Positions 12,308 through 64,000 of a stretch of 64,000 nt of DNA are shown here, in pieces. Origin of the DNA: an uncultured Candidatus Rokubacteria bacterium (GTDB lineage: Bacteria; Methylomirabilota; Methylomirabilia; Rokubacteriales; CSP1-6). The position numbers were made by a program, and so were the translations under genes. The notes under the pieces were generated by a model, which was not told where the DNA came from, did no database searches, and was given only the letters and a program-made list of their open reading frames with translations. Position 1 is the first letter of the stretch. Every line of letters begins with the position of its first letter. The stretch spans positions 35,422 to 99,421 of the forward strand of contig CAWBMV010000016.1 of assembly GCA_963789955.1 (NCBI GenBank), in the 5' to 3' direction.

Positions 12308-13939
<1,632 letters not shown>

Positions 13940-13943
<4 letters not shown>

Positions 13944-14246: not shown

Positions 14247-14249
14247 CGC

Positions 14250-14513: not shown

Positions 14514-14722
14514 GATCTGCTCGATCGGACGGGCGCAGACGTCGGCGACGGTCCGCTCGGACGAATTTCCGTCATCTCCATGACTTCACCGTATACTTAC
14601 CGGTCCTCAGCTACGCCATCGTCGTCACGTTCGCGCCGCGTTCCCACACCGCGTTCGTCACTTTGGATCCGTTGTCGCTCATGTCGGCCGCCGGCTCTCG
14701 GCAATGTCCTGACGCTCGTCGC

Positions 14723-21709: not shown

Positions 21710-22497
21710 TGGCGGCGTCTCTCGAGCGCCGGGTGGCGATCGACGCCGCGCGCGCCGCCGGCGACATCTTAAAGATGCAGTTTCGCGCGGCGCATCGCAT
21801 CGCGTTCAAGGGCCAGACGATCAATCTCGTCACCGAGATGGACGAGCGCGCCGAGGAGCTGATCGTCGGCCGGCTCGCGTCGGCGTTTCCCGACGACGCG
21901 ATCCTCGCCGAGGAGCGCGGCGCGGCGCGCGGACGCTCGGGGCGGCGCTGGATCGTCGATCCGCTCGACGGCACGACGAACTACGCGCACGGGCTGCCGG
22001 TCTACGCGGTGTCGATCGCGCTCGAGGTCGATCGGCGGATCGCGCTCGGCGTCGCCTACGATCCGAGCGCCGACGAGCTCTACGTCGCCGAGCGCGGGCG
22101 CGGCGCGACCGTGAACGATGCGCCGCTCGCGGTATCGACGACGCCGACCCTCGAGGCGAGTCTGCTGACGACGGGCTTTCCCTACAACATTCGCGAGACG
22201 CCGGACACGAACCTGAAGGAATACGCCGCGTTCGCGCTCCGCTGTCGCGGCGTGCGCAGACTCGGCTCCGCCGTCCTCGACCTCGCGTGGGTCGCCGCCG
22301 GCCGGCTCGACGGCTTCTGGGAGCTCCGCCTCGGGCCGTGGGACGTGGCCGCGGCCAGCCTCTTCGTCGAAGAGGCCGGCGGGCGAATCACGAATCTGGT
22401 GGGAGGAGCTGTCGACGTCGACGCGCCCGCGGTGGTCGCGAGCAACGGGCGCATCCAGGACGAGATGCTGGCGGTGCTGAGAGGGGTCCGAGCCTAG
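21709..22497 (+). CDS. suhB: Inositol monophosphatase family protein (SuhB-like)
   Basis: The ATG overlaps the MFS stop (TGATG). Motifs present: EMDERAEELI, WIVDPLDGTTNYAHG and GPWDVAAASLFVEEAGG. Confidence 0.85.
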   Translation: MAASLERRVAIDAARAAGDILKMQFRAAHRIAFKGQTINLVTEMDERAEELIVGRLASAFPDDAILAEERGAARGRSGRRWIVDPLDGTTNYAHGLPVYAVSIALEVDRRIALGVAYDPSADELYVAERGRGATVNDAPLAVSTTPTLEASLLTTGFPYNIRETPDTNLKEYAAFALRCRGVRRLGSAVLDLAWVAAGRLDGFWELRLGPWDVAAASLFVEEAGGRITNLVGGAVDVDAPAVVASNGRIQDEMLAVLRGVRA

Positions 22498-22685
22498 TCG
22501 GTGACGCGGGGGCGAATCTCCAGACCGCCCAGCGGACCCGGCAGGCCGCGCAGGGTGATCTGCACCGAAGACCGTGAGTCCGGCTGGCCCTCGACGATCA
22601 CGTCGACGTCGACGGCTTCGGCCGCGCTCAGGACTTCTCCGAGCCACGCCAACAGCTGGTCAGACCCGAACGGTGTGCGTGTCAT
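22494..22685 (-). CDS. Small hypothetical protein (63 aa)
   Basis: The ATG at 22685 is preceded by GGGGGAGAG. The product is MTRTPFGSDQLLAWLGEVLSAAEAVDVDVIVEGQPDSRSSVQITLRGLPGPLGGLEIRPRVTD. No family is recognised. Confidence 0.4.
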   Translation of the reverse strand: MTRTPFGSDQLLAWLGEVLSAAEAVDVDVIVEGQPDSRSSVQITLRGLPGPLGGLEIRPRVTD

Positions 22686-22747: not shown

Positions 22748-23302
22748 ATGAAGTCCGCGTCTTCTGACTCGGCGCTCGAGCATCAAGGCCACGACGAGAG
22801 GTTCGCGCCGCTCTGGTACGTGCTGCGGACGCGCTCGCGTCACGAAAAGACGGTGCGCGATCAGCTCGTGCGCCGAGAGGTCGAGACTTTTCTGCCCATC
22901 GCCGAGCGCTGGAGCCGCTGGAAGGATCGGCGCAAGAAAGTCGCCTTCCCACTTTTTCCCGGCTACTGCTTCGCGCGTTTCTCGCTCGTCGACCGCCTCC
23001 GGGTCCTGAACGTCGTCGGGGTCGCCGATCTCGTCGGGATCAGCGGCCGGCCCGAGCCCGTCCCGGACGCCGAGATCGAAGCGATTCAACGTCTGGCGAG
23101 CACGACCTTGCAGTACGATCCGCACCCGTTCCTGGCCGAAGGCATGGACGTCGAGGTCGTGCGCGGCCCCCTCGCCGGCGTCCGCGGCAAGCTCCTGCGC
23201 AAGGACCGTGTGACGCGGCTGGTGCTCTCCGTCACGCTCATCCGCCAGGCCGCGGTCGTCGAAATCCATCCGGCTGACGTCGTTCACGTAAGCGGCCCCT
23301 AG
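22748..23302 (+). CDS. Specialised NusG paralog (RfaH/UpxY-like transcription antiterminator; NGN + KOW)
   Basis: 184-aa ORF. The NGN domain reads WYVLRTRSRHEKTVRDQL..FLPI..KKVAFPLFPGYCFARF. The KOW domain reads GMDVEVVRGPLAGVRGKLLRKD. Confidence 0.8.
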   Translation: MKSASSDSALEHQGHDERFAPLWYVLRTRSRHEKTVRDQLVRREVETFLPIAERWSRWKDRRKKVAFPLFPGYCFARFSLVDRLRVLNVVGVADLVGISGRPEPVPDAEIEAIQRLASTTLQYDPHPFLAEGMDVEVVRGPLAGVRGKLLRKDRVTRLVLSVTLIRQAAVVEIHPADVVHVSGP

Positions 23303-24081
23303 TTCCGGAGCAACGCTCGCGCCTGGCGGGCCGCGGCACTCTGGGGATGCTCGCGGACCACTCGCTCCCACGATCGCTTCGCTCGCGCGCCGTCACCCAG
23401 GTCCTTCTGACATAGACCGATCTTCAGCAGCGCGTCGGGCACTTTCTCGCCGCGCGGCACCGCGGCGACGAGCGCCTCGAACTCGGCCAGCGCGCCGCGC
23501 CAGTCCTTCTGCTTGTAGTAGATGTCGGCCACCAGGAACTGCGCGCTCTCGCGCAGCGGGCTGTCCGGATACGTCGCGATGAGGTCGTAGAACGTGAGGA
23601 TCGCCGCGTCGTCGGCCTTGGCGCGCAGCTGATCGACCCCTCGCCGGTAGAGGTCGGCCGCCGGCGTCGTGGTCGCCGAGCCGAGCAGCGGCGGCGCTGC
23701 GGGCGGCGCCGGGGCGGTGCGGCGCGCTCGGCGCGAACCCGCTCGGCGCGGCCGGCAGGCGACCGCGATTCGGCGACTCCGAGCTCTTCCACGCGACGAC
23801 GCAAGTACGTCAGCTGATCATCCTGCTGTCGCGAGGCCGCGATGAGCTTGGCGACGGCGTTCTGGAGCTCGGCGAGCTCGCTGGCGATGCGCGCGACCTG
23901 CTCGTTGGAGCGATTCGGGTCGGCGGCGGCTCCCGACGGCTGGTTCGCGCCGGCGGCGGGTCGCGGCGAGTCGGCCGTCGCCGGCTGCTTGCCCACCTCG
24001 GCGCAGCCGGCAAGCATGAGCGCGACCATCGCGGCACCGAGAAGCGTGCCGAAGCGGAGCGCCGGGGTCGCGGTAGTCACG
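23299..24081 (-). CDS. YbgF/CpoB-like coiled-coil + TPR periplasmic lipoprotein, apparent frameshift(s)
   Basis: It has a GTG start at 24081 and the lipobox MLAGCAE. The coiled coil is VARIASELAELQNAVAKLIAASRQQDDQLTYLRRRVEEL. The TPR end is ADIYYKQKDWRGALAEFEALVAAVPRGEKVPDALLKIGLC (ORF 23299..23532). The middle (..ADLYRRGVDQLRAKADDAAILTFYDLIATYPDSPLRESAQFLV) lies in another frame. Confidence 0.65.
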
Positions 24082-24610
24082 GGCTGTTCGCCGTCGTCAC
24101 GGACACGAACGCGAGCGGCCATTGAGCGTGCGCCCGCACCTGGAGCGTCACGGTCGTCTCGCGGCTCAGCGGCACGTCGACGAGCCAGAGCCAGCCCTCC
24201 GGCACGTTCAACGACGGATAGCTCCGCACGATCTCGCCGCGCGCGAACACATACTGGGCCTGCCCGGCGGCGCGCGTGTGCACGCGCTCCCCGAGGACCA
24301 GGGTCCCTCCGTTCGTGACGCAGAAGAGATAGTCGATCTCCTCTGCCGGAGAAGTCCGGATCACCCGAACGGGCGCCGTGCGTCGCGTGGACTTTCCGGC
24401 GATGCTCGTGGAGATCTGCTCGAGCGTCGAATACGCGACGGGCGCCTCGCGCATGGCGAAGAGCTCGTTGCCCTGGCTCTGGACGCGGATCATCGATTGA
24501 TCCAGGGCCGCCACCGGCCGCGACTGAGGCTCTACGCGCGCGGCGACGATCAGGAGCGAGGCGACGGCGGCGAGCGTCACCACGGCCTGGAGCGCGGACC
24601 CGCGCGTCAT
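24077..24610 (-). CDS. Membrane-anchored hypothetical protein (177 aa)
   Basis: Intact ORF with one N-terminal TM helix (ALQAVVTLAAVASLLIVAA). Its ATG overlaps the arnD-like stop (ATGA). No family is recognised. Confidence 0.45.
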   Translation of the reverse strand: MTRGSALQAVVTLAAVASLLIVAARVEPQSRPVAALDQSMIRVQSQGNELFAMREAPVAYSTLEQISTSIAGKSTRRTAPVRVIRTSPAEEIDYLFCVTNGGTLVLGERVHTRAAGQAQYVFARGEIVRSYPSLNVPEGWLWLVDVPLSRETTVTLQVRAHAQWPLAFVSVTTANSP

Positions 24611-25515
24611 CCCGGCGCCGCCCGGCCCTGGAGCGCGATCCAGTCGCTCCGGCCGCCGATCCAGCCGCGCACCACTCTGGCGATGGGCAGCTCGTCACCC
24701 GCGGTGATCGCGCGCGCCGCGAGCTCGTCGAGTCGCGTGAGCCGCGCGCGCACCGCCGCGAGCTCCGCCAGGAATGCCGCGAACGTCGCGAGCAGCGCGC
24801 CGCCTTCCACCTCGGCGTGGAGCGTGAACACGTTGATGCCCGGCCGCACCGCCTGCGCGAGCGCCTGCGGGACGTTCGCGACGCGGCCCATGACCTCGTC
24901 CATCGTCGGCATCGTCGTCGGCAGCTGGATGGTCTCGAGCGCGCCGTCGCCGACGCTCGGCCGGAACGGCGTGTCGCCACGCGTGTCGCTCGCGTAGCGG
25001 AAGCCGCGGCCGTCCTGGACCGTGAGCGCCAGCGGCGAAGTCCGCCACCCGGGCGCCGCGCTCGCGGATGGCGCGACGCCGACCGCGGCCAGGAACGACC
25101 GCGCGGCCAGATCCAGATCGGCGCGGATCGCCACGTGGTCCAGTCGATGGATGCGATCCTGCCAGCCGACGTGGTCCCAGCCGTGCGGCGCGACCTCGTG
25201 CCCTTCATCGGCGATCTGACGGAGCATCGCCGGCGCGCCGGCGCCGACCAGCCTCGCGGGCACGAGCGTGCCGGACAGCAACGTGCGGAGCCCGTAGAGC
25301 TTGAACGGGTTCGTGCGCCACATCTTGGCGAGAAAGCTCGGGCGCAGCGCGCGGCGGATCGCCCGCCCGGAGTGGTCCGGCCCCATGGTCACGAAGAAGG
25401 ACGCGCGGACTCCGAGGCGCCGGAAGAGCTCGAGCAAGCGCGGGACCCCTTCGTCCAGACCACGGCGCGTGTCGACGTCCACGCGCAGGCCGACCGTCGC
25501 GCGATCGGTCAGCAT
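24607..25515 (-). CDS. arnD: ArnD-like 4-deoxy-4-formamido-L-arabinose-phosphoundecaprenol deformylase (polysaccharide deacetylase fold)
   Basis: Intact 302-aa ORF from ATG 25515. It is collinear with E. coli ArnD: VGLRVDVDTRRGLDEGVPRLLELF..ASFFVTMGPD..HEVAPHGWDH..AAPGWR..FRYASDTRG..IQLPTTMPTMDEV..FTLHAEVEG..VVRGWIGGRSDW. Confidence 0.85.
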   Translation of the reverse strand: MLTDRATVGLRVDVDTRRGLDEGVPRLLELFRRLGVRASFFVTMGPDHSGRAIRRALRPSFLAKMWRTNPFKLYGLRTLLSGTLVPARLVGAGAPAMLRQIADEGHEVAPHGWDHVGWQDRIHRLDHVAIRADLDLAARSFLAAVGVAPSASAAPGWRTSPLALTVQDGRGFRYASDTRGDTPFRPSVGDGALETIQLPTTMPTMDEVMGRVANVPQALAQAVRPGINVFTLHAEVEGGALLATFAAFLAELAAVRARLTRLDELAARAITAGDELPIARVVRGWIGGRSDWIALQGRAAPG

Positions 25516-26446
25516 CAGAGACGCGTCCCCGGGCGCACAGCCCGGCGCGCCGCCCAGCGGTCGGCAGGCTCGGCGACGCCGCCGGCGCTTTGCACGCGCG
25601 TGATCAGGAGCATGCCCCGGCCCGTCGCCACGGCGATGCCGCGCGCCGGAACGATCTCGACCACGGTCCCCGGCGCGGCGTCGCTCGCCGAATCCTCGTG
25701 GATCGACGCGGCCCACAGGTGGACACGCGCCGGGCCGTCGCCGACGAACGCGCCGGGATAGGGCTCGGCGACCGCGCGAATCATGTTGAAGATCCGGGCG
25801 GCCGGCCAGGTCCATTCGATCCGGCCGTCCTCGGGACGTCGCCGCGGCATGGTCGTCGCCAGCCTCGGATCCTGTGGGATCCGCGGCGCCCGGTCGGCGA
25901 GCACCGCCGGGTAGGACTCGAGCAGCAGCTCCACGCCGATCTTCGTCATGCGCTCGTACACGGTGAAGGCGGTGTCGTCCGGCTCGATGTCGATCGGCCG
26001 CTGGGCCACGATGTCGCCCGCGTCGGCGGTCGCGGTCATGTGATGGAGGGTGATGCCGGTGCGCGACTCGCCGTGCACGATCGCCCAGTTGAGCGGCGCA
26101 CGGCCGCGGTACGCCGGCAGCAGCGAGCCGTGCAAATTCAACGCCGCGATTCGCGGCAGCGCCAGAAGCGCGGGCCCCAGGAGCCGGCGATACCACACGG
26201 AGAGCATGAGTCGGGCGCGAGCTCGCGAACGTCTCGACGGTCGCGGGGCGATTCGGCGAAGGCGGCGTGAGACAGGGAATCCGATAGATGCGCGCGACGT
26301 CGGCGACCGACTCGAACCAGCTCCGTTCACCGGGATCGTCGGCGTGGGTCACCACGGCCGCGACGTGCTCGCCTCGTGACGAGCGCCTCGAGCACGCGCG
26401 CGCCGATCGTGTGATAGGCGAAGACGGCCCACCGCGCGCGCGTCAC
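25515..26446 (-). CDS. Stand-alone ArnA-type N-terminal formyltransferase domain protein, apparent frameshifts
   Basis: The GTG at 26446 overlaps the arnC-like stop (GTGA). The N-terminus reads WAVFAYHTIGARVLEALVTRGEHVAAVVTHADDPGERSWFESVADVARIYRIP. In ORF 25515..26330 the sequence continues NLHGSLLPAYRGRAPLNWAIVHGESRTGITLHHM..DAGDIVAQ..MIRAVAEPYPGAF, matching the E. coli ArnA formyltransferase domain. No C-terminal dehydrogenase domain is present. There are at least two frame changes near 26230-26350. Confidence 0.75.
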
Positions 26447-27213
26447 TCGAGCACCTCGGCGATCACGTAGCGCGGCCCGCGCCGCGCTTCCTGATAGATC
26501 CGGCTCACGCGCGCGCCGATCGGCCGGAGTGCGAGCACCTGGACCGAGAGGTCGAAGGCCAGGCCGAGGAGCCGCAGCGGCCCGTACCGGGAGCGTCCGT
26601 GCTCGCGGGCGCGGTGGTCGACGGGAATCTCGGTCATCGAGGACGCGAAGGCCGCGGCGAGCACCGGAAGGTAGCGCCGGGTGCCCCGGAACGCGAGGAT
26701 CCGGTCGATCACCGATCGCCGGTACGCGCGCAGCATGCATCCGTAGTCGCGAAGCCGTACGCCGATCGCGGCCGACGTCACGTGATTGACGAGCCAGGAC
26801 GCGGCCCGCCGGCCCCAGGGATCGCGCCGGCTCACGCGCCGCCCGCCGACGACGTCCGCGCCGGTTTCGAGCGCCGCGAGCAGCCGCGGAATCTCCTCGG
26901 GCGGATTCTGCAGATCGGCGTCGAGCGTCACGACGATCTCGCCGCGGGCGCGCTCCATGCCGGCGAACAGCGCGGCGTGCTGCCCGTAGTTGCGATTGAA
27001 CCGGATCATCCGCACGGCCGCGTCGCGGGCGCGGAGCGCGCGAAGGACGTCCGCCGAGTCGTCGCGGCTCCCGTCGTCCACGAAGATGATCTCGTGCGGG
27101 CGGCCGATCTTCTCGAGCGTGCGCGCGAGCCGCTGATGGAGCGCGACGAGACTCGGCGCCTCGTTGAACACGGGGATCACGATCGACAGCGCCGGCCGCG
27201 CGCCGTCGCTCAT
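26443..27213 (-). CDS. arnC: ArnC-like undecaprenyl-phosphate aminosugar transferase (GT2) lacking the C-terminal TM hairpin
   Basis: The ATG is at 27213. The product LSIVIPVFNE..IIFVDDGS..RNYGQHAALFAG..VTLDADLQNPPEEIPRLL..DYGCMLRAYRR..IPVDHRAREHGRSRY is collinear with E. coli ArnC. After DLSVQVLALRP it jumps straight to IGARVSRIYQEARRGPRYVI, so about 55 residues (two TM helices) are missing. Confidence 0.8.
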   Translation of the reverse strand: MSDGARPALSIVIPVFNEAPSLVALHQRLARTLEKIGRPHEIIFVDDGSRDDSADVLRALRARDAAVRMIRFNRNYGQHAALFAGMERARGEIVVTLDADLQNPPEEIPRLLAALETGADVVGGRRVSRRDPWGRRAASWLVNHVTSAAIGVRLRDYGCMLRAYRRSVIDRILAFRGTRRYLPVLAAAFASSMTEIPVDHRAREHGRSRYGPLRLLGLAFDLSVQVLALRPIGARVSRIYQEARRGPRYVIAEVLE

Positions 27214-28526
27214 CGCCCGGCCTCCCGGACCAGCAGGCAGTCGTTGTGGCCGCCGAAGCCGAACGAGTTCGAGATGGCGGCGCGGATGCGGGCGGGCACG
27301 GCGGTGTTGGGCACGTAGTTGAGGTCGCATTCGGGATCCGGCACGCGGTAGTTGATCGTCGGCGGGGCGATCTGGTCGCGCACCGCCAGCACCGTGGTCG
27401 CGAGCTCGATCGCGCCCGCGGCCGAGATCGTGTGGCCGATCATGGATTTGGTCGAGCTCACCAGGAGCCGCGGGGCCTCGGCGCCGAACACGGTCTTGAT
27501 CGCGGCGGTCTCCACACGGTCGTTCATCGGCGTCGAGGTTCCGTGCGCGTTGACGTAGTCGACGTCGGGCGGGCTCAGCTCGGCGTCGGCCAGTGCCAGG
27601 CGCATCGCGCCGATGGCACCCCGCCCGTCCGGCGCCTCGTCGGTGACGCGATAGGCATCGCAGGTGGTCCCGTAGCCCGCGATCTCCGCGAGCGCCGGAG
27701 CCCCGCGACGACGCGCATGGTCGGCCGCCTCGAGGACGAGAAAGCCGGCGCCTTCGCCGATCACGAAGCCGTCGCGCCGAGCGTCGAAGGGCCGGCTCGC
27801 GGTCTCCGGCGTTCCGTTCTGGCGCGACATGACCCCGAGCAGGCAGAAGAGCTGCACCTCGATGGGCGCGACGATGCACTCGGCGCCGCCGGCCAGCGCC
27901 ACGTCGATCGTGCCGCGGCGGATCGCGCGGTACGCCTCGCCGATCGCCTGTGCCGACGACGTGCACGCGGTCTGGATCGTCGCCGTCGGTCCCTCGACCG
28001 CGAAGTGCCCGGCGAGCCGCGCGGCCAGGTACTGCGGCCACGTCCGGTAGGCCGCCCGGGCGGCGGCCCGGCGCGCGAACTCGCCGACGAATCCGGCGCG
28101 GGTCACGCCGCCGCCGGCATCGCGGCTCGCGTACGCGATGGCGCCGAGATCGCGCAGATCCTGGCGCTCGCCGCTGGTACCGACGAAGACGCCGGCGCGC
28201 CGCGACGCGAGCACCGCACGGGCGCCGGCCGCCGCGACGGCGCCGCGGGCGGCGCGCACACCCACCACGACGCCGCGGGGCTCCCGCGCATCGAGCGCTG
28301 CCTCGGCCCGGAGCTCGTCGATCAGCGCCCGATCGTCGAGCGAGGCGGCGATCTGGGTCGGAAGCCCTTCGGGATCGAAGTGGGAGATGCGCTTGACGCC
28401 CGACACGCCGGCGAGCGCGGCCTTCCAGAAGGTGTCCGCCTCGGCGCCGATCGGCGTCACCAGGTCGAGCCCGGTCACGACGACCCGCCGGCGCGCGCCC
28501 GCGTCAGGCGAGGAGCGAGTACCCAC
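27210..28526 (-). CDS. Beta-ketoacyl-ACP synthase (KAS I/II type, FabF-like)
   Basis: Intact 438-aa ORF with a complete Cys-His-His triad context: IQTACTSSAQAIGEA, VNAHGTSTPMND and STKSMIGHTISAAG. Confidence 0.85.
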   Translation of the reverse strand: MGTRSSPDAGARRRVVVTGLDLVTPIGAEADTFWKAALAGVSGVKRISHFDPEGLPTQIAASLDDRALIDELRAEAALDAREPRGVVVGVRAARGAVAAAGARAVLASRRAGVFVGTSGERQDLRDLGAIAYASRDAGGGVTRAGFVGEFARRAAARAAYRTWPQYLAARLAGHFAVEGPTATIQTACTSSAQAIGEAYRAIRRGTIDVALAGGAECIVAPIEVQLFCLLGVMSRQNGTPETASRPFDARRDGFVIGEGAGFLVLEAADHARRRGAPALAEIAGYGTTCDAYRVTDEAPDGRGAIGAMRLALADAELSPPDVDYVNAHGTSTPMNDRVETAAIKTVFGAEAPRLLVSSTKSMIGHTISAAGAIELATTVLAVRDQIAPPTINYRVPDPECDLNYVPNTAVPARIRAAISNSFGFGGHNDCLLVREAGR

Positions 28527-29256
28527 CGTCCACCGTCAGGACCTGCCCCTGGATCGCCTGCGCCGCCGGGCTCGCGAGAAAGTAGACGACGCCGGCGACT
28601 TCGTCCGCCGTCACGAGTGCCCGGCCCGGCGTGCGCTCGCGGATCGCCGCGAGCGCCGCCGTGCCGTCGGGCATCGCCTGCCACACGTCCGTCTCCACGG
28701 CCCCGGCCGACACCGTGTTCACGGTGATGCCCTTCGCGCCGAGCTCGACGGCGAGGTAGCGCGTGAGTCCCTCGAGCGCGGCCTTCGACACGCCGATCGA
28801 CGCATAGCCCGGAATGACACGCTGGCTGCCGAGGCTCGACAGCGCGATGATCCGGCCGCCCGGCGTCATGATCCGCGAGGCTTCCTGGGCCAGGATCAGC
28901 AGCGCGCGCGCGTTGGTCGCCATGACCCAATCCCACTGCTTGGGCGAGAGATCGAGCCCGTCCCGCAGCACGCCGGATGCGGCGTTGCTCACCACGACGT
29001 CGAGACGACCCGCGCGGTTCTTGATCTCGGCCACCAGCCGCTTGATCTCCGCCGGCTCCTTGAGGTCGGCCTGCAGCAGGTGCGGCACGCCGCCGCGCAG
29101 CTCCACGTCGTGCGCCGTCTTTTCCGCGGCCTCGCGATTCACGAAGAAGTTCACGAAGACCAGGGCGCCGGCCTCGGCGAAGCGCAGCGCGATCGCGCGC
29201 CCGATGCCGCGGCCGCCGCCGGTCACCAGCACGCTGCGCGGTGTCGCGTCACTCAT
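28504..29256 (-). CDS. SDR-family enoyl-ACP reductase, FabL-like
   Basis: Intact 250-aa ORF with TGGGRGIGRAIA. The segment LSSLGSQRVIPGYASIGVSKAALEGLTRYLAVELGAKGITVNTVSAGAVETD closely parallels B. subtilis FabL (SSLGS..Y..VGVSKAALEALTRYLAVEL). Confidence 0.75.
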   Translation of the reverse strand: MSDATPRSVLVTGGGRGIGRAIALRFAEAGALVFVNFFVNREAAEKTAHDVELRGGVPHLLQADLKEPAEIKRLVAEIKNRAGRLDVVVSNAASGVLRDGLDLSPKQWDWVMATNARALLILAQEASRIMTPGGRIIALSSLGSQRVIPGYASIGVSKAALEGLTRYLAVELGAKGITVNTVSAGAVETDVWQAMPDGTAALAAIRERTPGRALVTADEVAGVVYFLASPAAQAIQGQVLTVDGGYSLLA

Positions 29257-29259
29257 GCG

Positions 29260-29739
29260 TCACGCGCCGCCGTCTCGCGGCGCGAGACCGGCGGGCACCG
29301 GCGTGAGCTCGCGCGCGAGCGCGCCGAGCCGCGCGGCATGGCGTTCCGCGTCGGTCCCGGGGGCCGCCGGCTCGAGCTCGTACTCGAGGGTCGCCGCCGC
29401 GACCCGGCGCGACTCGACCATCGCCGTCGCGTCGAGCACCCAGCCGTCGTCGCTTCGCCGCTCGCACCGGATCGCGAGCTGATCGCCGGGACGCACGGGA
29501 TGCCGGAATGCGACGCGTGAGAGCCGGCGCAGCCGCCCGACCTCGGCGAACTCCCGGCTCAGCGCGATCAGGAGCTGGCACGCCTGCGCGAACGCCTCGA
29601 CGACGAGCGCGCCCGGCAAGACCGGGTAGCCGGGAAAGTGGTCGGCGAACACGTCGTCGAGCCCGCTCACGTGCTTCGAGGTCTCGATCCGGCGAGGGAC
29701 GTCGAGCTTCACGATGCGGTCCACGAACACGAAGCGCAT
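29260..29739 (-). CDS. Hotdog-fold 3-hydroxyacyl-ACP dehydratase (FabZ/FabA-like)
   Basis: The ATG is at 29739. The product is MRFVFVDRIVKLD..HVSGLDDVFADHFPGYPVLPGALVVEAFAQ, which contains the His-containing dehydratase motif. 159 aa. Confidence 0.65.
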   Translation of the reverse strand: MRFVFVDRIVKLDVPRRIETSKHVSGLDDVFADHFPGYPVLPGALVVEAFAQACQLLIALSREFAEVGRLRRLSRVAFRHPVRPGDQLAIRCERRSDDGWVLDATAMVESRRVAAATLEYELEPAAPGTDAERHAARLGALARELTPVPAGLAPRDGGA

Positions 29740-29771
29740 CCTGGTGGACGGCGCGCGGCGCCGTCGTCTCC

Positions 29772-30380
29772 TCAGGCTCCGGCGGCGAGCCGCCCGGCGG
29801 CCGCGAGCTGGCCCACGAGGTACTCGGTGACGGCGTGAACGGTCAGCCGGCTCATGACGGCCTCGACCGCGTCCGGCGAGTGCAGGTTCTTCTCGAGATA
29901 GCCGGCGAGCTGGTCGACCTCGAGGCCCGACAGGTCGAGCGGGGTCAGCGCGAGATCGTCGAGCATGCGGGTGACGAGCACCGTGACGACCTCGCGCGCG
30001 TCGCCGGAGACTCGGGCGATACCGTGCTTGGCGGCCATGTGCTCGAGCACCGCGCCGACCGTCGCCGGCGACACCATGCGCAGCTCCTCGGCCGCCACCG
30101 CGACGCGATACCGCGCCTCGAGCACGCGGGCCAGCACGCTCAGGTCGCGCCACTCGATCCGGCGCTCCTGGATCAGTCGCATCGGCAGGTCGACGCCGAA
30201 GGTCTGCTGACACTTGAAGCTCAGGTCGAGAAAGTCGATCGACTCGGCGCCGAGATCCGCGATCAGCGCGGCCTCCGCCGTCACGTTCCCCTCGTCGACG
30301 CCGAGTGATTCGACGATGAGCTTGCCCACGCTCACGCGAACTTCGGGTCGAGTCCAGATCTTCCTGGTATCGGGCTCCAT
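29772..30380 (-). CDS. Acyl carrier protein domain protein with a C-terminal extension (202 aa)
   Basis: The N-terminal ~80 aa look like an ACP, with the phosphopantetheine-site context ADLGAESIDFLDL. The remaining ~120 aa are helical with no obvious second DSL-type serine. Confidence 0.6.
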   Translation of the reverse strand: MEPDTRKIWTRPEVRVSVGKLIVESLGVDEGNVTAEAALIADLGAESIDFLDLSFKCQQTFGVDLPMRLIQERRIEWRDLSVLARVLEARYRVAVAAEELRMVSPATVGAVLEHMAAKHGIARVSGDAREVVTVLVTRMLDDLALTPLDLSGLEVDQLAGYLEKNLHSPDAVEAVMSRLTVHAVTEYLVGQLAAAGRLAAGA

Positions 30381-30396
30381 GCGCTCCCCGGCCTCC

Positions 30397-31143
30397 TCAG
30401 CCGATTCCGCCGTCGACGGCGATGACCTGGCCCGTGATGTAGCTCGCCTCCTCCGAGGCGAGGAACACGGCCAGCGCGGCCACCTCTTCGGGGCGACCCA
30501 CGCGCCGCATCGGGATCCACTCCCGAATCTTCGGCGCGGCCATGCCGATGAACGGACGGCTCATGTCGGTCTCGATCAATCCCGGCGCGATCGCGTTCAC
30601 CGTGACGCCCCGGGCGCCGAGCTCCCGCGCCAGGGCCACGGTGAAGGCGTTGACGCCGCCCTTCGACGCCGCGTAGCCGACCTGGCCGCGGCCGGCCCGC
30701 GACGCCAGCACCGAGCTCACGTTGATGATGCGGCCCCAGCCCTGGCGGAGCATGTGCCCGGCGCCCAGACGCGCACAGCGAAAGACGGCGTCCAGGTTGG
30801 TCTCGAGCACCGACGCCCACTCGTCGTCCGGCGTCTCGACGAACAATCCCTCGCGGCTGATCCCCGCGTTGTTCACCAGGACGTCGAGCCGGCCCGCGCG
30901 CTCGACGACCGCACCGATCAGCGCCTCGGTCTGGGCCCGGTCGCTCACGTCGGCCTGGTACACGAAGCCGTGTCCGCCGGCCGCCTCGATCGCCCCCAAG
31001 GTTTCCTTGGCGCGCTCGTGCTGCTGGCGATAGTTGATGCACACCGTCGCGCCCGCCCGCGCCAGCGCGATGGCGATGGCGCGTCCGATACCGCGCGAGG
31101 CGCCGGTGACGAGCGCGGCGCGGCCGGTCAACGCGATCTGCAT
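30397..31143 (-). CDS. fabG: 3-oxoacyl-ACP reductase
   Basis: Intact 248-aa classical SDR. Motifs present: VTGASRGIGRAIA, NNAGI, and SS..Y..SKGGV..ELGARGVTVNAIAPGLIETDM. Confidence 0.85.
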   Translation of the reverse strand: MQIALTGRAALVTGASRGIGRAIAIALARAGATVCINYRQQHERAKETLGAIEAAGGHGFVYQADVSDRAQTEALIGAVVERAGRLDVLVNNAGISREGLFVETPDDEWASVLETNLDAVFRCARLGAGHMLRQGWGRIINVSSVLASRAGRGQVGYAASKGGVNAFTVALARELGARGVTVNAIAPGLIETDMSRPFIGMAAPKIREWIPMRRVGRPEEVAALAVFLASEEASYITGQVIAVDGGIG

Positions 31144-31150
31144 GCCGGCG

Positions 31151-32408
31151 CTAGCTCCGCATCATGAGCGCCGAGCACTCGCCGAAGAGCCCGAGCGTGA
31201 GCACCAGCACGGAGCGTAGCACCGGAGTCGTCGCGGGGCTGGGGCCCCGCCGGCCGAGGCGCGATTCTGGATCATGGTCCGACACGTCGGGCGGCACGGT
31301 CGCGTGGCGGAGCGCCGACGAGCACGCCAGGAGCTCGACGGGGCTCGCGGCGGCGCCGAGGTCGGCGTGAGCCGCCTTCAGCTTGAGCCGTGGCGCCGAC
31401 GGCGTCACCGCGCCGAGCGTGCGCGCGAGCGCTGCATCTTCGGCCCGATCGTGGGCCGGGATGCCGTCGCCGTGCAAGCTCACCAGATCGGGAGCGGTCT
31501 TCGCTTCCTCGAGCACCGTGTCGATCACTCGAGTGAGCCGGTCCGCCAGCCGCTGCGGATCGTCGCCGCCTCCGAGGCGGCCATCCCCGGCCGCCGAGGC
31601 GAAGCCGACCATCTCGCCGTGCACGCGCGCACCCCGTGCGATCGCGTGCTCGGCTTCTTCCAGCACGAGCAGGCCGCTGCCTTCACCCGGGACGAGGCCG
31701 GGCCGTCCATCGTCGCCGGCGATCACGCCGCCGCCCCAGTGCGTCGCGAAGAACAGCTCCTCGAGCTGGTCGTCGGCGCCGCCGCAGAGGGCGACGTCGA
31801 GATCGCCCTCGCTCGATGAGCCGCACGGCATCCCCCACCGCGCGCGCGCCGCCGACATGGCCCTCGGTCAGGGCCCGGCAGAATCCCTGCGCGTCATTCG
31901 CGATGGCCAGATGACCGGCGATCAGGTTCGGCAAAGTCTTCAGCGAGAAGTCGAGCGGGTTGATCGAGCGCATGCAGAAGGCGCTCGCGCGCGCCACGTC
32001 GAGCGTGCCCGGGGAGACCGTCGACTCCGACGCCGCGAGGTACTCCAGCATCGAGCCGAGATCCCAGGCGAGCATGTTCACCCCGAGCAGCACGCCGAAG
32101 CGCCGCGGATCACCGGCGCCCGCGACGAGCCCCGCGTCTTCCATCGCGAGCGCGCCGCCGAGCATCGCCAGGAGCGTCGCGCGGTTCCAGAGCTTCTGCT
32201 GCTTGCGCGGCAGGCGCGCGAGATGAGGCTGAATGGCGTCCGGCGCCACCTCGGCCCCGCGCGACGCCGGCAGCCCGAGCGCGGCGAGCCGATCCCGGCG
32301 GCCGACGGCCGAGCGCCCCGCGCAGAGCGCCTGCCAGTGCGGCTCGATCCCGACGCCGAGCGGCGAGACGACGCCGCGCCCGGTCAGCACGACGCCGCGC
32401 CCCCTCAT
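31151..32408 (-). CDS. Ketosynthase-like protein without the active-site Cys (chain-length-factor-like partner), one apparent frameshift
   Basis: The N-terminal half lies in the frame of ORF 31683..33392 (MRGRGVVLTGRGVVSPLGVG..NLIAGHLAIANDAQGFCRALTEGHVGGARAVGDAVRLIERG). The C-terminal half is in ORF 31151..31858 (DLDVALCGGADDQ..PGEGSGLLVLEE..LHGDGIPAHDRAE..LKAAHADLGAAA). Where KS enzymes have xACxS, this protein reads TEGHVGG. Confidence 0.65.
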
Positions 32409-32690
32409 GCGCGGGCACCTCGCGCCGGGTCGCCGGCCGGCGGCTCGACGCACACGAACATGAGCGTCGCCCGCGCGATCGGCGTGCGCTCGACGTACAC
32501 CTCGCTCTCCGTCTCGGCGACGCTCGTCCCGTCGGCCACCGACGTGAGCCCGCGGAGCGTGGCACGAGCGCAGCCGGTCGCCCGCGGCAGCGACGCCCGC
32601 GAGACGGCAGTCGGGCACCTTGAGGAGCAGCGGCAAGCGGCTCCGGCCGAGGTGACGGAAGACGATCTCGTCGACGAATTGGTAGCGCAT
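32405..32690 (-). CDS. Small hotdog-like protein (possible second dehydratase subunit), one apparent frameshift
   Basis: The ATG is at 32690. The product starts MRYQFVDEIVFRHLGRSRLPLLLKVPDC.. and, after a frame change, continues ..ATLRGLTSVADGTSVAETESEVYVERTPIARATLMFVCVEPP. Its stop overlaps the KS-like ATG (ATGA). The N-terminus parallels the MRFVFVDRIV start of the 29739 dehydratase. Confidence 0.4.
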
Positions 32691-35342: not shown

Positions 35343-36815
35343 CTATCCTCTCCCGAGGCGCTCGATTTTACGCGAACGTTCCTCGAACCGAATGATCCGA
35401 CTTCTGGCGATACTCGACGGACCGATATCCAACAGGTGGTAGACGCTCACGATCGTGGACGCATCGCCGGCGCCGACGCTCGTCACCCAGGCCGGCGGCC
35501 CGCTGAGGCGCTCATCGACGAGCCGAAGGAGCTTGCGGCCCGTGCGAAGGGTCCCCGGCGCGACGAACACGACTTCCAGGTCGATCAGGCGTTGGCAGTA
35601 GGCCGACCAGGCGTCGGGCCGCGTGCGCTGGAGCGCGCCGAGCATCGCCTGGACGGCCCGCTCGCGGGCCGCGGCATCGCCCTCGAGCTCGAGGCGGAAT
35701 TGCACGACGGTGGTGAGATCGCGCTCGTAGAGCCCGACCTGCCAGTCGTTCGGGAGCCGCGGCACCTCCGCGAGCAGCGGCTCGAAGAAGTCCGGGCGAA
35801 GATTGCCCCAGGCGCACGAGACCTGCTCGTCGAGCCTGCCCCGCAACGGCGAGAGCCGGCGGAACGGGAGCCCGCACGCGCAGGGCTCCGGAACCCAGCG
35901 CGCCACGTCGCCCGTGCGGTAGCGGATCAGCGGCATCACCCGCCGGCTCACCGTCGTCAGGACGATCTCTCCGTAGCCGTCGGAGTCCGCATCGGCGAGC
36001 TCGACGCAGAAGTCGAACTCGTTCACGTGATAGCCCGCACGCTGCGTGCATTCGAAGCCGAGGATGGTCGCGGCCTCGGTCGACGCGTACGTCATACACA
36101 CGAGCGCGCCCCAGAAGCTCTCGAGCTCGGCCCGCGTACGCGGCGTGATCCCCTCGCCGCCGCCGATCAGGACTTTCATCGGCCCGGGCCGTCCGCGCTC
36201 GCGCGCGATCTCGGTCAGCCGCGCCAGCCAGAAAGGATCGCCGACGATGACGTTGAAGCGGTACTCGGCGAGCCGCTCGTAGGCCTCGCGCGGATCGACG
36301 CGGCCCACGACCATCGAGAACATCGGCGTGTAGCGCATGAGGCGTTCGACGAGCAAGGAGCCGAGACCCCAGTCGAGCCCGAGCGTCGAGAGGAGCCGGT
36401 CTCCCCGCCCCAGGCCGTAGAGTCCGAGCATGAGGCCGCCCTGGCGGGCGTTGTACTCGAGCTCACGCCGGCTCAGGTAGACGCGCGTCACGTGGCCCGA
36501 GGTGCCGGAGCTCTCGATCGCGAGCTCGGCCGGCCCCGTCACGAGCGCCTCGGGGCGCGTCTTGAGGATCTCCGGGGTGAGGTAGAAGTCGCCGAGATCC
36601 TCGAGCCGGCGGAGGCCCCGCGCCTCGATGCGCGCGGCCGCGAAGGCGTCGCGATACCAGGGTGCGCGCGCGGCGATCCGGAACGTCTCGCGCAGCCCCG
36701 GCGCGCGCAGCGTTTCCAGCACCGGCAGCGGCAGCGCGCGCAGGAACGCCAGCGGAAGCCGCGGGTAACGGCGGCCGAGCGCGAAGAGGACCTCGGAGCC
36801 GGCTCGGAGGTTCAT
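35343..36815 (-). CDS. AMP-forming ligase of the phenylacetate-CoA ligase / coenzyme F390 synthetase (CapK-like) family
   Basis: Intact 490-aa ORF with the adenylation motif IESSGTSGHVTRVY and family-like architecture. Confidence 0.75.
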   Translation of the reverse strand: MNLRAGSEVLFALGRRYPRLPLAFLRALPLPVLETLRAPGLRETFRIAARAPWYRDAFAAARIEARGLRRLEDLGDFYLTPEILKTRPEALVTGPAELAIESSGTSGHVTRVYLSRRELEYNARQGGLMLGLYGLGRGDRLLSTLGLDWGLGSLLVERLMRYTPMFSMVVGRVDPREAYERLAEYRFNVIVGDPFWLARLTEIARERGRPGPMKVLIGGGEGITPRTRAELESFWGALVCMTYASTEAATILGFECTQRAGYHVNEFDFCVELADADSDGYGEIVLTTVSRRVMPLIRYRTGDVARWVPEPCACGLPFRRLSPLRGRLDEQVSCAWGNLRPDFFEPLLAEVPRLPNDWQVGLYERDLTTVVQFRLELEGDAAARERAVQAMLGALQRTRPDAWSAYCQRLIDLEVVFVAPGTLRTGRKLLRLVDERLSGPPAWVTSVGAGDASTIVSVYHLLDIGPSSIARSRIIRFEERSRKIERLGRG

Positions 36816-38013
36816 CGCGCGTAGTGAGCGAAGACCTTGTCGAGGGCGCGCAGGACGTCATCCTGGTCGGCGTCGGTCATCGCGGCGAAGAGGGGCAAGG
36901 TCACCAGCCGCGGCTCAACGGCGTCGGCCGTTGCGCACAGTCCCTTCCCGTAATGGACCCGCTTTCGATAGAACGGGTGATTGTAGACGAGCGGATAGTG
37001 AACGGTGGCCCCGATGTTCTCGGCGCGCAGCGCCTCGACGATCGTGTCGCGTTCCACCACGAGACGCTCGAGGCGAAGCAGGACGACGAAGAGATGCCAG
37101 CCGTGCCGCCCGCCCGGCGGGAGCGCCGGGAGCTCGACGAACGGTGAGCCCCCAGCCGCTCGCGGTAACGCCGGGCGAGGCGATCTCGCTGTGTCCAGAA
37201 GCGATCCAGCTTGGCGAGCTGGGACAACCCCAGCGCCGACTGGAAATCGGTAAGTCGATAGTTGTCGCCTGGCTCGTGAATCTCGTAGCGCCAGGGGCGC
37301 GGGCCGGCGGGCACGCGGATGCCGTGGTGGCGCGCCGCCCGCATCCGCTCGGCGAGGTCGTCGCGATCGGTCAGCACGGCTCCGCCTTCTCCGGTGGTGA
37401 CGATCTTCGCGGGATGGAAGGAGACGGTCGTCAGATCGGCCAGCGCGCCGACGGGTCGATCTCCGGAGGCGCCGCCGAACGAATGCGCTGCGTCCGCGAT
37501 CACGATCCAGCCGTGCTCGCGCGCGATCGCCAGCAATCGGTCGTACTCGCACGGAAGCCCGGCGAAGTCGACGGCCAGCACAGCGCGGGTCCGGGACGTC
37601 GCGACCCGCTTGACCGCGCCGGGAGCCAGATTCAGGGTCGAGCCGTCGATGTCGGCGAAGACCGGCAGCGCGCCGCGATCGACGATCGCGTTCGCGGTCG
37701 CCGCGAACGTGAGCGGCGCCGTGATCACCTCGTCGCCGGCGCCGAACCCCGCCGCCCGGCACGCGAGGTGAAGTGCCGCCGTGCCGCTCGCGACCGCGAC
37801 CGCGTGACGCACCCCCGCGCGCTCGGCCAGGGCCCGCTCGAAGCGGACGACCGCCGGGCCCTGCGTGATCCAGTCCGCGGCGAGGGCGGCGCTGACCGCG
37901 GCGATGTCGTCGGCCTCGATCGTCTGGCGTGCGTACGGCAGCGGTGTGGCCCGAACGCGAGAGCCACCGTGGAGCGCCAGCGTGTCGCTACGGCGTCGAG
38001 GGGGATGGCTCAC
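36812..38013 (-). CDS. DegT/DnrJ/EryC1/StrS-family sugar aminotransferase, one apparent frameshift
   Basis: ORF 36901..38013 carries the PLP-enzyme body (..ADAAHSFGG..VSFHPAKIVTTGEGG..). From about 37140 the conserved C-terminus (SPFVELPALPPGGRHGWHLFVVLL..ENIGATVHYPLVYNHPFY..) continues in ORF 36812..37762. Confidence 0.8.
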
Positions 38014-43147: not shown

Positions 43148-43148
43148 C

Positions 43149-62482: not shown

Positions 62483-64000
62483 CTACCGGAACGACGCCGT
62501 GAACTGCACTCGCAGGAGTTGGTCGATTCCATTGTCGCCGGCCCTGAAGTTTCGGTTCTTCACATCGCTGACCAGGTATTGCGCGAAGACCGAAAAGCGG
62601 TCCGCGAAGCGATAGGACACGTCCAGGCTCCCGCCGAGGCGCTCCTCCTGCGGACCGGAGAAATTGAACGTGGTGCTGCCGATGATGGCCCGGTCGAAAT
62701 TGACGCCAAACATCAAGTTCGGTGTGAGGCGCGCGCCGACGCGAGCGAAGTAGTCCCGGCCGTTCGTGCCGATGAAGTCGCCGATCACATGGCCCCGCGT
62801 CCAGTACCCGCTGGTGAACTGATCGTTGTTGTACGACTGGGGCGAGGTTCGGGCGTATTCGAACCGGAAATCCAGCCAGTCTTGCCCGAAGAGACCGAGC
62901 AGATGCATGCCGCCTACAGCGCCGACCGTGCTGCCCTTGGGCAGGAGGTTCGACGCCAGGAAGTGGCCGATTCCGCTACTCGGGCCGCATTCGCCGCAGG
63001 TGTCGTCCCAGTAGAACTCGCCGTAGAGTCGCAGATCCCGGCTCGGAAAGTAGTAGTGATCCACGTTTCGAAAGCGCAGATCGCCGTCGACGCTGAACAC
63101 ATTGTTGGTGCGGTTCTCCGGGTGTTGGTTCGCGTCGTCGCCGAACGACGGATTAAAGATCGCCGCCAGATATTTGTCCGCCGAAAGGTACGGTGAGCCC
63201 CCGTCGAACATGACCGCTCGGCTGGCCCCAAGCTCCAACCACGTGGCCGGCGTAAAGGTCAGACGCATGCCCGACACCTTGGTGTAGGGGTGATCCCGGC
63301 GCTCCTCGAGCTGCGCCAGGAAGATCAGCGCCTTCATGGGCCCGACCCACTCGCCGATCCACGGCAGCAGAAAGGGCTCCGCGGACCCGAGCCGGACCTG
63401 ATCCAGCGGCGCCGCGTTGTTCGAAAAGATCATGAAGTTACGGTATCCCGGCCCCCACTGGAGGCTGTCACGGCCGAACATGAGCTCGATGTTCCAGAAC
63501 GTGAGCTTCGCGTAGCCGGTGATGAGGCGCGCCGCCGTATAGTCCTGGTTCGCGAGCAGCTCGGGCTGGATATAGAAGGTCAGATAGTCCCAGAGCTGCG
63601 CACGGCTCTCGAACGTCAGCCCCATGTTGAACGTCCGCTTGACCGAGCTCCCCTGCTCGTTGACGAGTGAGAAGCCATGCGTCGCCAGACCGTTGAACGC
63701 CTGCGCGCGATCGATGGGGGTGAAGGAGAACGCGCCCGGTGGCGAGACTCCGTCGGGAACCTGGACGCCCAGCGAGGCCAGCTCGACCTTGAACTCGTCC
63801 ATCAAGCGGTCGAGCACCGGCTCGAGGTCGCGGCGCATGTTGAGGCCCTCGGGATCGTCCCGGCGGATCCGTTCGATTGCGCGGGCGACGACCCGCGCGG
63901 CCTCGATGCGGTTGAGCGGCTTCGTGTTCAGCAAGGTCCGGTCGGCGAGCCCAGCGGTGACCAGGCGCTCCAGATCGTCGTACGCCGCGTCGCGATACTC
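62483..64000 (-). CDS. wzi: Capsule assembly protein Wzi family outer-membrane protein (N-terminus beyond the right edge)
   Basis: The ORF is open to the window end. The sequence upstream of the listed Met continues in frame (..YDDLERLVTAGLADRTLLNTKPLNRIEAARVV..). The beta-barrel body includes ..TFWNIELMFGRDSLQWGPGYRNFMIFSNNAAPLDQVRL.. and ends with an aromatic residue pattern (..VQFTASFR). Confidence 0.75.
   Translation of the reverse strand, partial: EYRDAAYDDLERLVTAGLADRTLLNTKPLNRIEAARVVARAIERIRRDDPEGLNMRRDLEPVLDRLMDEFKVELASLGVQVPDGVSPPGAFSFTPIDRAQAFNGLATHGFSLVNEQGSSVKRTFNMGLTFESRAQLWDYLTFYIQPELLANQDYTAARLITGYAKLTFWNIELMFGRDSLQWGPGYRNFMIFSNNAAPLDQVRLGSAEPFLLPWIGEWVGPMKALIFLAQLEERRDHPYTKVSGMRLTFTPATWLELGASRAVMFDGGSPYLSADKYLAAIFNPSFGDDANQHPENRTNNVFSVDGDLRFRNVDHYYFPSRDLRLYGEFYWDDTCGECGPSSGIGHFLASNLLPKGSTVGAVGGMHLLGLFGQDWLDFRFEYARTSPQSYNNDQFTSGYWTRGHVIGDFIGTNGRDYFARVGARLTPNLMFGVNFDRAIIGSTTFNFSGPQEERLGGSLDVSYRFADRFSVFAQYLVSDVKNRNFRAGDNGIDQLLRVQFTASFR

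Follow-up and report, generated by a model that had tools for sequence, protein, structure and literature searches.

Why should a fatty-acid synthase lie inside a glycan locus? The question is raised by a 64-kb stretch of DNA (the window) from an uncultured Candidatus Rokubacteria bacterium, in which seven adjacent minus-strand genes (27210-32690) resemble a type II fatty-acid synthase (FAS II) and are surrounded by genes for aminosugar modification and polysaccharide export (Table 1). Judged from their sequences, these genes are predicted to encode all the activities of a saturating elongation cycle, together with a carrier. The analysis points, with a probability of roughly 0.55, to a dedicated, primer-loaded, fully reducing elongase that would supply the acyl chain of an envelope glycolipid or lipoglycan with an aminosugar. 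The elongase portion of this reading follows from gene content, catalytic motifs and synteny across phyla. The envelope or surface location of the product follows from the tight operon linkage of the cassette to Arn-like genes, an outer-membrane polysaccharide export (OPX) gene, wzi and a gene for a DUF1571 protein.

Five of the seven products had been described in an initial annotation as a ketosynthase (KS) with a Cys-His-His triad, a FabL-like enoyl reductase (ER), a hotdog dehydratase, a protein with an acyl carrier protein (ACP) domain and a FabG ketoreductase (KR), and all five descriptions are confirmed by Pfam, NCBIfam and Protein Data Bank (PDB) matches together with sequence motifs. 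The triad of the KS is present in alignment (Cys in TACTSS, His in AHGTS and His in GHTIS). The protein passes the NCBIfam subfamily model for beta-ketoacyl-ACP synthase II (416 > 387) but fails the fabF equivalog (422 < 494), and its best PDB matches are to FabF (322 bits) rather than to KS-alpha (264) or the KS of aryl-polyene (APE) clusters (201). The ER belongs to the short-chain dehydrogenase/reductase (SDR) family. Its best NCBIfam match is FabL with 286 bits (cutoff 328; runner-up 175), and its best PDB match is the FabL of B. subtilis (3OIC, 213 bits), the next SDR reaching 139. Orthologues of this FabL-type ER, 53-90% identical, occur in every related locus. In the dehydratase, the His of the DHFPG motif and the Glu are invariant across the family alignment. 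It scores below the NCBIfam cutoff of the FabZ equivalog (84 < 113), and its orthologues carry precomputed Pfam matches to the ApeI-like family. The FabG protein passes the FabG subfamily model of NCBIfam (247 > 222) and misses the FabG equivalog (275 < 298).

The carrier protein is considerably longer than its recognizable domain, since the Pfam PP-binding domain spans residues 20-71 only. Ser47 is invariant and lies within an invariant DLGAESID motif, with ESID in place of the usual DSLD, and the NCBIfam score is under the cutoff of every ACP model (43 < 71). More than 1000 relatives were found, of which the top 120 are 79-97% identical and labelled Candidatus Rokuibacteriota; Binatia form the second large clade. 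When clustered at 50%, the relatives give only 36 clusters with E < 1e-10, and the full-length ones are 24-46% identical. An AlphaFold2 model based on an alignment with Rokubacterial and Binatia sequences consists of one compact helical domain (predicted local distance difference test (pLDDT) 92, predicted TM-score (pTM) 0.84); an earlier run on Rokubacterial sequences alone gave a pLDDT of 54 and was not used. Foldseek matches to the model are all ACPs and cover ~55-60 residues, and the search against the PDB gave no match for the remaining ~130 residues. On the basis of this model, the ~200-residue ACP would represent a new architecture without structural precedent. Published structures of GT-C and MmpL proteins with bound AcpM, which also appear among the fold matches, are evidence that an ACP can bind to membrane machinery of the envelope. 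This may serve as a lead, and only a lead, to the role of the extended ACP.

The remaining two genes encode putative partners of the KS and the dehydratase. The first (31151-32408) had been noted as a Cys-less KS-like protein. It is predicted from its sequence to be a non-catalytic partner of the chain-length factor (CLF) type, but it is not a single open reading frame (ORF). The gene falls into two ORF pieces in different frames, and an intact orthologue of 407 residues maps across both by tblastn. The break corresponds to a 1-nucleotide (nt) insertion at 31812 that is missing from two independent contigs of close relatives (L089 and L090) and is probably a sequence error; an exact-pattern scan of metagenomes for this site gave no match. 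Among orthologues the position of the active-site Cys is occupied by H, P, W or C depending on the clade, and both His positions also vary. Of the solved structures, FabF is the closest to both the KS and its KS-like partner, ahead of the KS and CLF of APE or actinorhodin synthases.

The second (32405-32690) had been described as another small hotdog-like protein, and in the window it is a hotdog paralogue but only a remnant, with deletions of 147 nt and 2 nt. Its product has no Pfam match and a sequence search found no match in the PDB. Comparison of its family (p143) with the dehydratase family by HHalign gives a probability of 99.2% (E 8e-20). In p143 the catalytic His is replaced and the Glu is retained, and the alignment indicates a non-catalytic paralogue of the dehydratase, comparable to the arrangement in ApeI/ApeP or HadAB. 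Compared with the full-length allele, the window carries a 147-nt (49-codon) in-frame deletion that is shared with an independent metagenome contig (L091), as well as a 2-nt deletion near 32567 that is private to it. The species-level population to which these sequences belong has the full 144-residue protein in L140 and other deletions in L137, L089 and L090, with at least four different internal deletion alleles (95, 54, 45 and 33 residues). All of these alleles stay in frame as far as their stop codon, with which the start of the KS-like gene overlaps. The small hotdog seems dispensable in the lineage of the window, with translational coupling to the KS-like gene kept. The allele sequences indicate that the 147-nt deletion is real and that the His-less hotdog is genuinely being lost in this lineage.

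The cassette had been called complete and private. The latter is supported, as it appears dedicated and has its own carrier; the former is too strong, as two of its seven genes are disrupted in the window. The two disruptions are different in kind. The window has a G+C content of ~70%, so that the coding frame is marked by the GC of third codon positions (GC3), and a hidden-Markov segmentation by GC3 detects ~35-40 frame switches without a stop codon, spread over all 64 kb. Some of these fall in genes distant from the cluster (KaiC, an ABC ATPase and a luciferase-like gene), and 14741-16294, 10488-10705 and 19046-19114 are among the places affected. L089 and L090, which were found by a protein-seeded scan of metagenomes, are ~97% identical to the window and agree with each other against it, and the differences fall exactly at the frame-breaking single-base indels. 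The single-base breaks thus appear to be errors or private mutations of the window sequence and not decay of the cluster. Pseudogenization specific to the cluster was considered as their source and ruled out, because the breaks are window-wide and private to the window sequence. The window is probably an error-prone consensus of the long-read type, and with single-base indels this frequent its ORF calls are unreliable. The minus strand codes for nearly everything from ~57.9 kb down to 23.3 kb, and a scan for promoters and terminators gave signal no higher than background.

Table 1. Positions of the cassette genes, their neighbours and the private single-base indels in the 64-kb window
Feature	Position	Strand	Basis or remark
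FabF-like ketosynthase, catalytic	27210..28526	-	Pfam ketoacyl-synt N and C domains; Cys-His-His triad
FabL-type enoyl-ACP reductase (SDR)	28504..29256	-	NCBIfam, PDB, Tyr-x6-Lys motif
FabZ-like 3-hydroxyacyl-ACP dehydratase, catalytic hotdog	29260..29739	-	Pfam FabA domain; FabZ models and PDB FabZ structures
Extended acyl carrier protein, 202 residues	29772..30380	-	ACP core and ~130-residue helical extension
FabG 3-oxoacyl-ACP reductase	30397..31143	-	Pfam adh_short_C2; Tyr-x3-Lys motif
KS-like partner, predicted non-catalytic (CLF-like)	31151..32408	-	Frame broken at 31812
His-less hotdog partner, remnant	32405..32690	-	143-144 residues (p143) in relatives
OPX outer-membrane polysaccharide export protein, ~870 residues	32729..35338	-	Three frame breaks
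PaaK/CapK-like adenylate-forming enzyme	35343..36815	-	Proposed ACP loader
ArnB-like DegT aminotransferase	36812..38013	-	Frame break near 37153; ORF pieces in two frames
ArnC-like family 2 glycosyltransferase (GT2)	26443..27213	-	Start overlaps KS stop
ArnA-N-like sugar formyltransferase	25518..26446	-	tblastn; 2-3 frame breaks
ArnD-like deformylase (Polysacc_deac_1)	24607..25521	-	tblastn, 80% identity to L002
Conserved secreted protein, 170 residues (p170)	24077..24610	-	tblastn, 77% identity to L002; also in L005
YbgF/CpoB-like TPR lipoprotein	23302..24076	-	tblastn in three frames (frame breaks)
Wzi outer-membrane capsule-assembly protein	62486..64000	-	Pfam Caps_assemb_Wzi, E 4e-64; runs off window
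Single-base indel sites private to window	31812, 33410, 33158, 34871, 35476, 37153, 26375/26230/26210		Comparison with L089 and L090

The cassette and its PaaK/CapK-like ligase are syntenic in Rokubacteria, NC10/Methylomirabilia, Binatia and other metagenome-assembled genomes, a taxonomic distribution that is a lower bound given the scan of genome collections used. In other Rokubacteria (L001-L004) the order is PglF-like, Wzz, DegT, ligase, OPX, p143, KS-like, FabG, ACP, dehydratase, FabL-like, KS, GT2, formyltransferase, deacetylase, p170 and TPR lipoprotein. In GWA2_69_24 (L005) the seven genes keep their order with a DegT gene between those for the ACP and the dehydratase, and an ArnA-C-like epimerase, a B12 radical-SAM enzyme and a DUF1571 protein are also encoded. 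On an NC10 chromosome (L010) OPX, Wzi (with PAP2), ligase and DUF1571 precede the seven-gene cassette, and in L013 (NC10/Methylomirabilia) an ArnT-like GT-C and the ligase adjoin it. L007 contains an ArnT-like GT-C, the ligase, its own AcpS and five cassette genes, FabG not being detected before the contig end. The Binatia operon L087 runs from Wzi through ArnT-like, ligase, DUF1571, AcpS, hotdog, KS-like, FabG, ACP, dehydratase, FabL-like, KS, SDR, ArnC-like, formyltransferase, ArnD-like and ArnB-like to Ugd. In a second Binatia locus (L085/L086, on a 6.17-Mb contig) the cassette genes occur in rearranged order with radical-SAM, GT2, epimerase, deacetylase and Ugd genes, and AcpS, GT-C and ligase lie upstream.

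In most lineages the cassette is thus found among Arn-like genes (ArnB, ArnC, formyltransferase and ArnD, sometimes with ArnT, Ugd or AcpS), and outer-membrane genes (OPX, Wzi, DUF1571) accompany it nearly always. The initial annotation had made its hypothesis depend on co-occurrence with glycan genes in other genomes, and the link to glycan and Arn-like genes is indeed conserved across phyla. Ugd is encoded in L085-L087 and further GT-C homologues in L013 and L007. For the ArnT-like GT-C of L087, ArnT is the only NCBIfam match (150 < 567). A separate gene of the epimerase/dehydratase family in L005 and L085/L086 may stand in for ArnA-C.

Three observations concern these related loci themselves. 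A B12-binding radical-SAM enzyme with DUF4070 is encoded beside the cassette in L005 (1845-4007) and L085/L086 (7321-8910) and was not seen in the examined parts of the window. This neighbour points to methylation of the chain, or to some other radical modification, in GWA2_69_24 and some Binatia. In L010 (1994-4570), Wzi and the PAP2 lipid phosphatase are called as one ORF of 859 residues, which may be a true fusion or an artefact of an assembly frameshift. Several apparently unknown ORFs of L013 were discarded, being translations of GC-rich DNA in the wrong frame or in antisense.

The immediate flanks of the cassette in the window are as initially annotated, with OPX on one side, the GT2, formyltransferase and deacetylase on the other, and the PaaK/CapK-like ligase beyond OPX. 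The ligase matches the DVU_1553-family AMP ligase (156 bits), FlxY (83) and PaaK (75) models of NCBIfam, and its best PDB match is PaaK 4r1l (106 bits). Its adenylation motifs are intact, and a 1-nt insertion at 35476 distorts its C-terminus and the 3' end of the ORF. Wherever the upstream flank was recovered (L005, L007, L010, L013, L086 and L087), the ligase is co-located with the cassette. An intact OPX from L002 falls in three frames on the window by tblastn, the 1-nt insertions being private to the window. The protein matches the EpsE and PEP-CTERM export models of NCBIfam, and its relatives carry Poly_export/SLBB domains. Its N-terminal Gln/Pro-rich low-complexity region (34600-35130, minus strand) differs by in-frame indels of 24, 12 and 3 nt between close strains.

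The Arn-like genes are assigned mainly by best match. The DegT protein of the window is 49% identical to its L087 orthologue, for which ArnB is the best NCBIfam match (441 bits, cutoff 631). The GT2 best matches ArnC (241 bits, profile positions 8-224 of 316), as does an ArnC-like relative (353 bits, cutoff 529). In Rokubacteria this GT2 consists of 256 residues and does not have the two C-terminal transmembrane helices of ArnC/GtrB; the final RIYxxxRxxPRY-type segment is retained, and the Binatia orthologues are full length (312-325 residues). An intact orthologue of the formyltransferase passes NF005414 (320 > 316) and scores 293 bits against the ArnA N-domain, and the best NCBIfam match of the deformylase is ArnD (256 bits, cutoff 382). 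Neither the ArnA-C decarboxylase in the 64-kb window nor, in general scans that did not search specifically for small membrane proteins, ArnE/ArnF was found. Downstream, p170 has no Pfam or NCBIfam match, and the TPR lipoprotein scores 88 bits for YbgF (cutoff 90) and 56 bits for BamD. Wzi, Wzx, Wzy, Wzz and OPX are all found in the glycan locus of the window, where Wzi is 42% identical to the Wzi heading the Binatia operon L087.

Several further features of the locus touch its edges and interior. A NusG paralogue of 184 residues (22748-23302, plus strand) lies tail-to-tail with the last cluster gene and is kept at the same place in other Rokubacteria (89% identity) and L005 (80%); it is possibly an operon-specific antiterminator of the RfaH/LoaP type. 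An inositol monophosphatase (21666-22577, plus strand) marks the cluster edge in the window and in other Rokubacteria, and a myo-inositol-1-phosphate synthase does so in L005 (6-998); this may be fortuitous or may point to an inositol-containing lipid. Within the glycan locus, an E1 beta subunit of the pyruvate/acetoin dehydrogenase type and a frame-broken E1 alpha (42166-44200, minus strand) are flanked by a second DegT aminotransferase on one side and the initiating phosphoglycosyl transferase on the other. This pair may make an unusual sugar substituent. The stretch between a secreted-protein gene and wzi (60359-62472) has lower G+C (~0.62) and no clear coding signal, and its sole long ORF (60709-61782) has no Pfam match. 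Upstream of the glycan locus, and unrelated to it, are homologues of KaiC and a KaiB-domain histidine kinase with a response regulator (12311-16353, minus strand).

If the cassette is a dedicated elongase, the following sequence of reactions can be proposed. The ligase would adenylate a carboxylic-acid primer and then load it on the holo-ACP, for which some relatives encode their own AcpS near the cassette (L007, L085/L086 and L087). PaaK-family ligases of the AjiA1 type load carrier proteins, and a role as primer loader of the ACP would be the most economical one for this enzyme. The KS and its KS-like partner would elongate the chain with malonyl units provided by housekeeping FabD, and the KR, the dehydratase pair and the ER would complete the reduction in each round, with a long saturated acyl-ACP as the outcome. 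The chain would finally become part of an envelope glycolipid or lipoglycan with an aminosugar, and this product would be exported to the outer membrane. The last transfer may be an N-acylation, at the amine that the ArnD-like deformylase sets free, or the chain may instead enter a lipid that is decorated by the ArnT-like GT-C. A 4-amino sugar is probably part of the product or goes with it; in Rokubacteria, where a PglF-like dehydratase is encoded nearby, this sugar may be a 4-amino-6-deoxyhexose.

A number of points weigh against this elongase reading. As stated initially for the cassette, there is no malonyl transacylase, thioesterase or acyltransferase, and this holds for the entire window and the related loci, leaving chain release and attachment unexplained. 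The ligase could equally be an amide-forming ligase. The length and saturation of the chain are deduced from gene content only, and all relatives that bear the cassette are uncultured, so that no product is known. Among the Arn-like proteins only the formyltransferase reaches a curated NCBIfam cutoff, the others falling below equivalog level, and the 64-kb window contains no homologue of ArnT, Ugd, AcpS or DUF1571. Finally, in the NC10 loci there is no Arn trio nearby, and the cassette is found instead with OPX, Wzi, DUF1571 and the ligase.

The most specific form of the proposal places the chain on nitrogen. After deformylation by the ArnD-like enzyme the chain would be amide-linked to the 4-amino sugar, so that undecaprenyl phosphate or the polymer would bear an N-acyl aminosugar, by a logic like that of Nod factors (NodB followed by NodA, with NodE and NodF). 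The deformylase yields exactly the nucleophile required, and the ArnC-like, formyltransferase and ArnD-like genes directly follow the KS gene with stop/start overlap in Rokubacteria, L005 and Binatia. In L005 the DegT gene even sits inside the cassette. Nod factor synthesis likewise employs a private KS (NodE) and ACP (NodF) for a special chain and an enzyme of the NodB family that unmasks the sugar amine. However, there is no NodA homologue here, and the sugar would be linked to a lipid carrier and not be a free oligosaccharide. No N-acyltransferase of the NodA, LpxD, GNAT or LPLAT type is conserved in any locus, and the complete L087 operon leaves no spare cytoplasmic enzyme of unknown function to take this part. 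Canonical Arn deformylation exposes a free cationic amine and not an acylation site, the ArnT-like GT-C of Binatia would be just as compatible with a sugar that is handed to a lipid acceptor with its amine free, and the NC10 loci have no trio nearby. The initial annotation had favoured such an attachment. The association of the cassette with glycan and Arn genes stands, but no acyltransferase is conserved that would transfer the chain to the amine unmasked by the ArnD-like enzyme, and on balance N-acylation appears unlikely.

Somewhat more doubtful is a super-operon for remodelling of lipopolysaccharide (LPS), in which the cassette would make a special, possibly very long, acyl chain of lipid A, as does the rhizobial acpXL-fabZXL-fabF2XL-fabF1XL-lpxXL cluster, and the Arn genes would add an aminosugar to the lipid A phosphate via the ArnT-like GT-C. 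Such a GT-C adjoins the cassette in Binatia, L013 and L007, and L087 holds Ugd, ArnB, ArnC, ArnD and the formyltransferase together. A PAP2 lipid phosphatase adjoins Wzi in L010, and a LolA/RseB-like DUF1571 protein is present in relatives. The rhizobial cluster also resembles the cassette in combining a private ACP, two KS genes and a dehydratase for one acyl chain of an envelope glycolipid. Unlike it, the cassette has its own KR, ER and loader ligase and an ACP twice as long, and no acyltransferase of the LpxXL/LpxL family occurs in any locus. In Rokubacteria the cassette lies in a capsule-type locus with Wzx, Wzy, Wzz, OPX and Wzi, not beside lpx genes, and the models of the AcpXL cluster are not the closest to the ACP and KS. 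The resemblance to the pathway for 4-amino-4-deoxy-L-arabinose (PmrHFIJKLM/Ugd) is itself partial. The window contributes ArnB-, ArnC-, ArnA-N- and ArnD-like genes, and relatives add ArnT-like, Ugd and separate ArnA-C-like dehydrogenase genes by best NCBIfam match. In contrast to that pathway, only the formyltransferase is at curated level, the Rokubacterial ArnC-like protein is without the transmembrane hairpin, and a fatty-acid synthase is inserted in the operon.

A further possibility is that the cluster produces a pigment lipid of the aryl-polyene or flexirubin type, with the chain left unsaturated. APE clusters consist of the ApeO-ApeC KS-CLF pair, the ApeI-ApeP dehydratase pair, ApeQ, ApeE/F, ApeH and the GT2 ApeJ, among other parts. 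The likeness to APE and other highly reducing type II polyketide synthase systems that was noted initially is borne out: an active KS with a dead KS (ApeO-ApeC), a catalytic with a dead hotdog (ApeI-ApeP), an ApeI-like dehydratase, a dedicated KR and ACP, an adenylating enzyme with weak similarity to FlxY, a GT2 beside the KS and, in relatives, a periplasmic LolA-like carrier. The acyl chain of the APE product is attached to an aminosugar-phosphate lipid, a GalNAc-phosphate-glycerol lipid, and chemically this is the closest precedent for the product proposed here. The cassette differs in its 200-residue ACP, its Arn-type sugar genes and above all its genuine FabL-type ER, which is conserved with its Tyr-x6-Lys motif in every clade. 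Both the KS and its KS-like partner score higher against FabF than against the APE KS, there is no thioesterase or LPLAT, and the Pfam lists of all loci contain no homologues of ApeR, ApeK, ApeD or MMPL. An unsaturated pigment is accordingly very unlikely.

That the block is simply the housekeeping FAS II of the organism is hardly credible: the four cycle activities and an ACP are all present and the ACP is 79-97% identical among the top Rokubacterial relatives, but no FabD, FabH, PlsX or acc gene accompanies them (FabD and FabH being absent from the window and 15 related loci), the fabF, fabZ, acpP, fabG and fabL equivalog cutoffs are all missed, that of fabF by the KS included, the 200-residue ACP with ESID in place of DSLD reaches no ACP model cutoff, such systems do not feature a dead KS or a dead hotdog, and the conserved neighbours across phyla are glycan, Arn and export genes.

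The reading as a dedicated elongase finds its closest functional parallels elsewhere. Dedicated FAS II-like cassettes are known for mycolates, for the very-long-chain fatty acid of rhizobial lipid A and for aryl polyenes. Mycobacterial FAS-II (KasA/B, MabA, HadAB/HadBC, InhA, AcpM and FadD32) is an elongase for pre-formed primers with a dedicated KR and ER, an ACP extended beyond the four-helix core and an adenylating enzyme in the pathway, and its dehydratase is a heterodimer of a catalytic and a non-catalytic hotdog, to which the predicted dehydratase pair of the cassette would correspond. There is no homology at the level of subfamilies. The ER of the cassette is of the FabL type and not InhA, its ligase is of the PaaK type and not a fatty acyl-AMP ligase (FAAL), a dead KS partner is present, and the context is one of glycan and Arn genes and not of mycolate genes. 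In its mode of action the cassette would be closest to the FAS-II of mycobacteria or the acpXL system of rhizobia, with the paired-subunit architecture of APE synthases. Neither a description of the cluster nor a characterized homologous cluster with a known product was found in the literature. PDB entries 9s5h and 9s3l (a KS pair and a PaaK-like ligase) were considered as a characterized relative and rejected, as they score below FabF and PaaK and no paper was found for them.

In contrast to the cassettes described previously, this one is joined at the operon level to an Arn-type pathway for a lipid-linked aminosugar and to outer-membrane export genes, and it is conserved in at least three uncultured, soil-dominant lineages of phylum level. 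The compact Binatia operon L087 represents a ready construct for heterologous expression. A bolder proposition, against which the odds remain considerable, is that the Arn and FAS units of Rokubacteria, NC10 and Binatia together make a new class of outer-membrane glycolipid or lipid anchor. In it, a long saturated and possibly omega-substituted or methylated chain, primed by the PaaK-like ligase and built on the ~200-residue ACP, would be joined to a polyprenyl-phosphate-linked 4-amino sugar and delivered to the surface by the ArnT-like GT-C with DUF1571, Wzi and OPX. If true, this would amount to a lipid-A-independent lipidation of a capsule or envelope polymer, with acyl transfer by a type of enzyme not yet recognized. 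The cassette predicts a new lipidated surface glycoconjugate, and with it a missing acyl-transfer chemistry.

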